Below are positions 26,801 through 27,239 of a stretch of 64,000 bases of DNA, piece after piece. Below the pieces are notes generated by a model, which worked only from the letters and a program-made list of their open reading frames with translations, was not told the DNA's origin and searched no databases. How positions within the stretch are numbered: the stretch's first letter is position 1; each line of letters opens with the position of its first letter. Both the position numbers and the translations under genes were made by a program. This stretch comes from Pedobacter sp. (lineage in GTDB: Bacteria; Bacteroidota; Bacteroidia; Sphingobacteriales; Sphingobacteriaceae), in assembly GCA_965249885.1 (NCBI GenBank), contig OZ252254.1:252013-316012 (forward strand). The letters run 5' to 3'.

Positions 26801-27134
26801 CAATAATTTTGTAGCTTAAATGCAGCTGATCAGAAATTTCTTGAAGGACGTCTTTCAAGTCCTTATCTTTCGCACTCACCGTAATTTTTCCACGTTTCAA
26901 TGCTTCATTAGCATCGTATAGGAAGAAAAAGCCAGTTTGTTTTTTAATGATTTCCGATACCTGCGCTAAACTTTCATTTTTAGCGTTTATGCTTACTTTT
27001 TGCGCATAACCAGCCGCTTTTACGCCAAATACGCAAAGTATAATTAGGCATACAGTTAATCTCATAATTAATAGTATTTTTCTATTAAATAGTTTGCTTG
27101 TTCCCGAACTTTTGTCGGGAAGGAATTGTTTCAT
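23874..27134 (-). CDS. susC: SusC/RagA TonB-dependent transporter with N-terminal STN signalling domain
   Basis: STN extension, CarboxypepD-like domain, [33 protein letters not shown] plug motif, C-terminal GLNVSF. Confidence 0.95.
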   Translation of the reverse strand: [1086 protein letters not shown]

Positions 27135-27141
27135 ATGTTTG
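27111..27141 (+). promoter_or_regulatory. Antisense promoter overlapping the susC start codon (TTTG-N19-TATGTTTG)
   Basis: TTTG at 27111-27114, 19-nt spacer, TATGTTTG at 27134-27141; full Bacteroidota consensus. Confidence 0.7.
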
Positions 27142-27145
27142 TATG

Positions 27146-27239
27146 TATTGGTTTTAAATTTTGAATGAATTCTGAGCTCATCAAGGTGTTAATAACCATG
27201 CGATGATCCGGAAGCATTGGCGTGCTTTCGGATTTTTTT
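27146..27239 (+). ncRNA. Candidate cis-antisense sRNA to the susC leader
   Basis: Consensus promoter upstream; ends at hairpin atccggaagca-ttggcg-tgctttcggat plus T run; 5' end estimated. Confidence 0.55.
27206..27239 (+). terminator. Hairpin plus U tail in the fecR-susC spacer, oriented antisense to the operon
   Basis: 11-bp stem with one G-U pair, followed by T7 on the + strand. Confidence 0.7.

Follow-up and report, generated by a model that had tools for sequence, protein, structure and literature searches.

The antisense RNA DonS of Bacteroides fragilis was reportedly described by Cao et al. in 2016 in J Bacteriol 198:2410. According to three other reports, DonS is encoded in cis opposite a susC homologue at a locus with an ECF sigma/anti-sigma pair, and represses its own locus (PMC7366714, PMC11697453, bioRxiv 10.1101/2023.02.16.528795). 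The same reports give a size range of 78-128 nt for the DonS family (PMC7366714) and place DonS-type RNAs preferentially, not always, at host-glycan PULs of gut Bacteroides (bioRxiv 10.1101/2023.02.16.528795). The PUL-associated antisense candidates of Bacteroides thetaiotaomicron have grown to 32 (bioRxiv 10.1101/2023.02.16.528795). Those tabulated measure 74-140 nt, and two types, A (BTnc009, 077, 123 and 249) and B (BTnc055 and 252, in which the transcription start site overlaps the start codon), carry the canonical PM1 promoter; a terminator is predicted for each of BTnc009 and BTnc055 (PMC7366714, Supplementary Data 2). BTnc009 is constitutive and its susC is barely detected (PMC7366714). 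FopS and GibS of the same species are trans-acting, multicopy RNAs with a conserved seed, which pair beside the start codon and repress susC translation (PMC11697453).

Gut Bacteroides are the only bacteria in which antisense control of SusC/SusD loci has been demonstrated, and how it works is described as unknown (PMC11697453). The literature searched yielded no report of DonS-like antisense RNAs outside Bacteroides, and no Pedobacter transcriptome paper bearing on a susC antisense RNA. In a transcriptome paper on Flavobacterium psychrophilum, the antisense list is offered merely as a starting point.

The window, by which the whole stretch of 64,000 nucleotides analysed here is meant, comes from Pedobacter. 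The original prediction had recognized in it a peptidase locus with ECF, FecR and susC genes, and Pfam searches bore this out. The genes concerned are the following.

28495-29040, minus strand: ECF sigma factor gene (Pfam Sigma70_r2, r4_2, ECF)
27280-28428, minus strand: FecR-type anti-sigma factor gene (Pfam FecR, FecR_C)
23874-27134, minus strand: gene of a susC-like TonB-dependent transducer, the presumed target (Pfam STN, plug, barrel; ORF list)
27132-27134, minus strand: start codon of this susC gene
22454-23860, minus strand: SusD gene (Pfam)
19158-21971, minus strand: M16 peptidase gene (Pfam)

A SusC/SusD system is placed by these domains under an ECF sigma/anti-sigma pair, and no glycoside hydrolase was detected by Pfam among the scanned genes of the locus. 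We consider it probable that the spacer between fecR and susC holds a plus-strand gene for a DonS-like cis-antisense small RNA of about 94 nt, which would probably repress susC.

The predicted antisense unit

The elements of the unit, together with an inverted repeat in the susC coding region, are located as follows.

27101-27121, no strand: 7-bp inverted repeat over susC codons 5-11, enclosing the antisense -33 element
27111-27114, plus strand: -33 element TTTG, within susC codon 8
27134-27141, plus strand: -7 box TATGTTTG of a predicted sigma-A-type promoter, separated from TTTG by a 19-nt spacer
27146-27239, plus strand: predicted cis-antisense small RNA of about 94 nt, with its start taken from the box position and its end from the T7 run
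27145-27201, plus strand: 5' stem-loop of the predicted RNA (arms 27145-27153 and 27194-27201; RNAalifold, pair counts)
27205-27239, plus direction only: intrinsic terminator, made up of a 13-pair hairpin (27205-27234, with 3 G-U pairs) and a T7 run (27233-27239)

The promoter and terminator, both on the plus strand, thus lie opposite the 5' end and leader of susC. A plus-strand promoter, TTTG-N19-TATGTTTG, had been predicted to overlap the susC start codon, and it was found at 27111-27141. The overlap is of one base: base 1 of TATGTTTG is the complement of the A in the susC ATG, and the rest of the box occupies leader positions -1 to -7. The description of this element as a full consensus promoter is exact within the window; however, the TTTG at -33 is peculiar to this genome, the orthologues having CTTG. 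A synonymous mutation of the -7 box, which had been proposed as a check, is impossible because the box lies in the susC 5' UTR.

The assignment as a canonical sigma-A promoter, that is an exact TTTG-N19-TAnnTTTG, is made at the level of the motif only. The window contains 2 exact matches where 0.8 would be expected, and 2 are also reached in 22 of 100 shuffles. A lone match is therefore within chance, and the significance of this one rests on its position and its recurrence. TAnnTTTG alone turns up often, 1.2 times per kb of coding DNA, and the full -33/-7 pattern is enriched 5.4-fold in the intergenic DNA of this genome. The second exact match in the window (46986-47016, minus strand) is presumably, from the sequence, the promoter of a 359-aa ORF (45842-46921, minus strand), since it is situated 65 nt upstream of it.

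A hairpin with a T7 tail had been predicted about 95 nt downstream, acting in one direction, and the structure at 27205-27239 is indeed terminator-like on the plus strand only. The hairpin has a dG of -17.2 on the plus strand vs. -11.4 on the minus strand, where A7 precedes the stem and no T-run comes after it. No upstream plus-strand gene that it could terminate is present in the ORF list. The TAnnTTTG box of F. psychrophilum spans -12 to -5 (PMC9723704), and when this spacing, with the last G at -5, is applied here, the predicted start falls at about 27146. Together with the T7 run this gives a predicted RNA of about 94 nt, in agreement with the start near 27146 and the length of 90-95 nt put forward originally. 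The predicted size lies within both the 78-128 nt of the DonS family and the 74-140 nt of the B. thetaiotaomicron table. The RNA had been expected to be complementary to the susC initiation region. This holds for leader positions -12 to about -105; the start codon lies outside and is overlapped by the antisense promoter only, the predicted RNA beginning about 12 nt upstream of the AUG.

A 96-nt version of the RNA folds into two stem-loops (z = -3.1), and the susC leader on the minus strand also folds well (z = -5.0). An Rfam covariance-model scan of 26000-29500 (E <= 10) gave no match near 27100-27250. For an ECF-dependent susC promoter, scans with AAC-N-CGT and G[GT]AAC and a conservation profile of the sense strand revealed no consistent site.

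The beginning of the susC coding region has features of its own. The inverted repeat at 27101-27121 is retained with a compensatory change in one of the orthologous loci (G016). Hairpins in the first 60 coding nt average -9.2 kcal/mol in the 13 FecR-linked susC genes of the genome vs. -5.8 in other susC genes and -5.4 in random genes (p = 2e-4). When the FecR-linked SusC paralogues are aligned with one another by BLAST, the first aligned residue has nearly the same number in both proteins (about 18-40); the N-terminal extension of 20-odd residues, which precedes the signal peptide and houses the antisense promoter, is therefore of conserved length.

Recurrence and conservation of the unit

The 4.57-Mb genome contains 13 FecR-SusC pairs, with 12 spacers of more than 100 nt and one gap of 1 nt. 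An antisense TAnnTTTG, in any of three registers, is present at the start codon of 10 of the 13 FecR-linked susC genes. The same placement was found in 2 of 39 other susC genes and in 37 of 3254 other ORFs (1.1%), giving Fisher p values of 1e-6 and 4e-17, respectively. Neither the paralogues nor the orthologues are independent samples. Of the 12 FecR-SusC spacers, 10 have a terminator (dG <= -10) in the antisense direction and none has one in the sense direction; for the 463 other tandem spacers that measure 100-300 nt, the counts are 21 (4.5%) and 96, respectively. The ten antisense-direction terminators have dG values of -10.9 to -19.1, and the distance from the start codon to the beginning of their tails is 91-199 nt, with seven of them at 91-117.

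Box on the ATG and terminator are found together in 8 loci, 91-147 nt apart. Among the remaining FecR-SusC loci, three are partial, the one with the 1-nt gap has nothing, and one has a displaced unit about 82 nt upstream. In this last locus (G000:C1:2765083-2765383, minus strand, gap 299 nt), the box is TAAGTTTG and sits about 82 nt before the ATG, with the terminator about 110 nt beyond the box. Outside the box and terminator the FecR-SusC spacers cannot be aligned, and the hairpin sequences all differ; what the paralogues have in common is therefore a design and not a repeat. The 21 tandem spacers of 100-300 nt elsewhere on G000:C1, which have a strong terminator directed against the flanking genes, may by their sequence hold further antisense or orphan small RNA genes.

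Eleven orthologous loci were compared, from nine named Pedobacter and two further members of the genus (G016 and G019), with FecR 45-62% identical to that of the window. All 11 keep TATTTTTG on the ATG, and in all 11 a hairpin is followed by T6-7, with 91-93 nt separating box and tail. Between the two hairpins the sequence of the body is little conserved while its length is constant; between the terminator and the fecR stop codon, the DNA varies in length (47-75 nt) and is unconserved. The -7 box and the next 20 nt double as the translation-initiation leader of susC, and their conservation may serve the sense strand in part.

A covariance search of fecR-susC spacers had been suggested as a further check, and the orthologues do show paired stems with compensatory changes. 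In the terminator stem, AAGCA/TGCTT is replaced by GAACA/TGTTT or AGAACA/TGTTCT, and a basal T-A pair by G-C. The compensations in the upper stem were read by eye, and the formal count covers the lower 5 terminator pairs only, because MAFFT misaligned the upper stem, which has an extra pair in some orthologues. The 5' stem, as folded by RNAalifold, has 8 pairs; for one of them the 12 sequences split evenly, 6 having A-U and 6 G-C, and 10 cells are G-U. Overall, 94% of the cells of the alignment (A2) are paired vs. 36-62% with the partners slid. Three pairs vary on both sides, and the covariation score was reached by 0 of 500 shuffles, a result that is supportive and not proof because only about five independent lineages are sampled. 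The alignment has 17 cells that are G-U in the antisense RNA and become A-C mismatches in the sense RNA.

The strands were also compared in a set of 23 distinct hairpins drawn from paralogues, orthologues and other taxa. The antisense strand is more stable in 19 of them, by 3.5 kcal/mol on average, and G-U pairs number 41 on the antisense strand vs. 6 on the sense strand, although this asymmetry is partly one of ascertainment because the hairpins were chosen on the antisense strand. The conserved sequence unit is, in our judgement, real, and it is very probably a small RNA gene.

The design was also sought in other lineages, with the complete form defined as a box on an in-frame ATG and a terminator 64-120 nt downstream at FecR-SusC loci. 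It is present in another genus of the same family, in Olivibacter, in a Sphingobacteriales MAG and in a Chitinophagales MAG, and also in Sunxiuqinia, Plebeiibacterium, a Marinilabiliaceae MAG and Flavobacterium ajazii. Besides Sphingobacteriales, the orders represented are Chitinophagales, Marinilabiliales and Flavobacteriales. The box-plus-terminator unit was found at 0 of about 19 FecR-SusC junctions in one Bacteroidaceae MAG (G085; junctions L080, L084, L089, L094, L099, L105 and L109-L123) and at 0 of 6 in one Prevotella MAG (G086; L083, L088, L093, L098, L103 and L108). The FecR-SusC gaps of these two MAGs are mostly -11 to about 120 nt, the majority below 100 nt, and their junctions are without an antisense-direction intrinsic terminator, unlike those of Pedobacter, Olivibacter, Sunxiuqinia and Flavobacterium.

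A tentative extension, to which we give somewhat less than even chances, is that the box on the start codon and the two-hairpin antisense unit of about 90 nt form an ancient module of fixed design. The module would belong to ECF/anti-sigma-coupled SusC systems across the Bacteroidota orders Sphingobacteriales, Chitinophagales, Marinilabiliales and Flavobacteriales, whatever the substrate (here peptides), and would include a hairpin in the first 20 susC codons over the antisense -33 element. The DonS-type RNAs of Bacteroides could then be a derived offshoot of a control layer common to the phylum, or have arisen independently, the latter being considered because the sampled Bacteroidaceae and Prevotella junctions are without the design.

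Proposed mechanism and alternative readings

In the proposed mechanism, a constitutive housekeeping-sigma promoter of the Bacteroidota -33/-7 type, abutting the susC start codon, would fire away from susC at about 27146, and transcription would stop at the hairpin and U7 of 27205-27239. This would yield an RNA of about 94 nt that folds into two hairpins and is complementary, without a mismatch, to the susC 5' leader between -12 and about -105. By pairing with susC transcripts in this leader, it would create a long duplex that takes in some of the unstructured, A-rich region where ribosomes land, and could block their landing and/or trigger cleavage. Expression of susC and the downstream genes would be kept low unless the ECF sigma factor is strongly activated, and convergent transcription over the presumed susC promoter region might add some interference. 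That the RNA lowers the expression of susC (with susD and the peptidase gene) when the sigma factor is not strongly activated is most likely by analogy with DonS of B. fragilis and the PUL-associated antisense RNAs of B. thetaiotaomicron. What the sequences show directly are the signals themselves, their return in paralogous loci, their retention with compensatory changes in orthologues and their asymmetry between the strands; production of the RNA, its exact ends and its repressive effect are what we infer.

The possibility was considered that the unit is real and that the act of antisense transcription is what matters. Polymerases leaving a constitutive antisense promoter would then cross the 100 nt presumed to hold the ECF-dependent susC promoter and occlude or collide with sense initiation, and the terminator would simply shield fecR. 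Where the spacer is short (114-146 nt), no more than 17-47 nt separate the end of the terminator from the fecR stop, so a susC promoter carried by the spacer must overlap the antisense unit, and an inter-hairpin body of constant length and poorly conserved sequence would also suit this explanation. However, the conserved 5' stem with its compensatory change and the antisense-specific G-U pairs suggest selection on the RNA itself, and DonS is described as acting on its PUL, by a mechanism called unknown (PMC11697453). Interference as the sole basis of the unit is judged unlikely, and it is not mutually exclusive with pairing of the RNA.

It is also conceivable, and in our estimate improbable, that there is no antisense RNA at all. 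The box would be a by-product of the A-rich initiation leader of susC, and the hairpin, lying after an A-tract, a sense-strand element of the susC or fecR transcript, for instance a stabiliser or a processing or protein site. Positions -1 to -7 of susC, where the box lies, belong to a zone important for initiation in Bacteroidota, and both the high frequency of TAnnTTTG by itself and the stable fold of the minus-strand leader fit such an origin. But outside the FecR-linked set, the box occupies this zone in 2 of 39 susC genes and, among the remaining ORFs, in 1.1%. Moreover, the T-run is conserved on the antisense side, with no T-run on the sense side, and antisense G-U pairs become A-C mismatches in the sense stems, which lose 3.5 kcal/mol on average. 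Since the hairpin sequences are wholly different between paralogues, they are not a shared protein site.

Action in trans on several susC leaders, as by FopS and GibS, or a role as mRNA for a small peptide was considered because the predicted RNA 5' ends are all G/U-rich and the susC leaders A/C-rich, and because a 13-codon ORF lies within the predicted RNA at 27165-27206, but both are very improbable and were rejected: the first 30 nt of the RNA have a duplex energy of -40.5 kcal/mol with their own leader vs. -6 to -14 with the 12 other FecR-linked leaders, which is no better than random (mean -9.0, sd 2.5), and the ATG of the ORF is TTG in the orthologues, with indels in the region. The predicted RNA of the preferred reading, a cis-antisense repressor of susC, is by these energies locus-specific.

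Comparison with known systems

What is new here is a predicted DonS-like unit in a non-gut genus, on a peptidase locus. The original prediction had extended the DonS-like layer of control to a non-gut lineage, and the comparative evidence for a conserved antisense unit of DonS-like position, size and promoter type lends support to that view. A conserved unit of defined anatomy would mean that this layer is not special to the gut or to glycans; one environmental genome alone has the unit in 8-10 loci, and it was also found in each of the orthologues examined and in further orders. Its fixed geometry, with a promoter abutting the AUG, a constant body of about 92 nt and a strong terminator, would make it well suited to telling apart the effects of RNA pairing and of transcriptional interference. 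The fecR-susC spacers are presently unannotated, and RNAs of this kind would confound susC induction experiments.

The predicted RNA resembles FopS and GibS as a small RNA that would pair near a susC start; in those two, the 5' part is single-stranded and a terminator hairpin comes after it. Unlike FopS and GibS, it has no shared-seed pairing with non-cognate susC leaders beyond the random level of duplex energies. With types A and B of B. thetaiotaomicron (81-140 nt) it shares a sigma-A (PM1) promoter, here a predicted one, and a position antisense to the susC 5' end. However, its start, about 12 nt upstream of the AUG, lies between those of the two types, and there is no common sequence.

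DonS has been demonstrated experimentally whereas the Pedobacter unit is a prediction, and the two are likened by published description and not by sequence or exact anatomy. Pedobacter is a soil and freshwater genus and the locus is one of an M16 peptidase, so the host-glycan and gut setting, which is typical of DonS-type RNAs and not defining, does not apply. As with DonS, the candidate is encoded opposite a susC homologue at an ECF sigma/anti-sigma locus, and its predicted length falls within the size range of the family.
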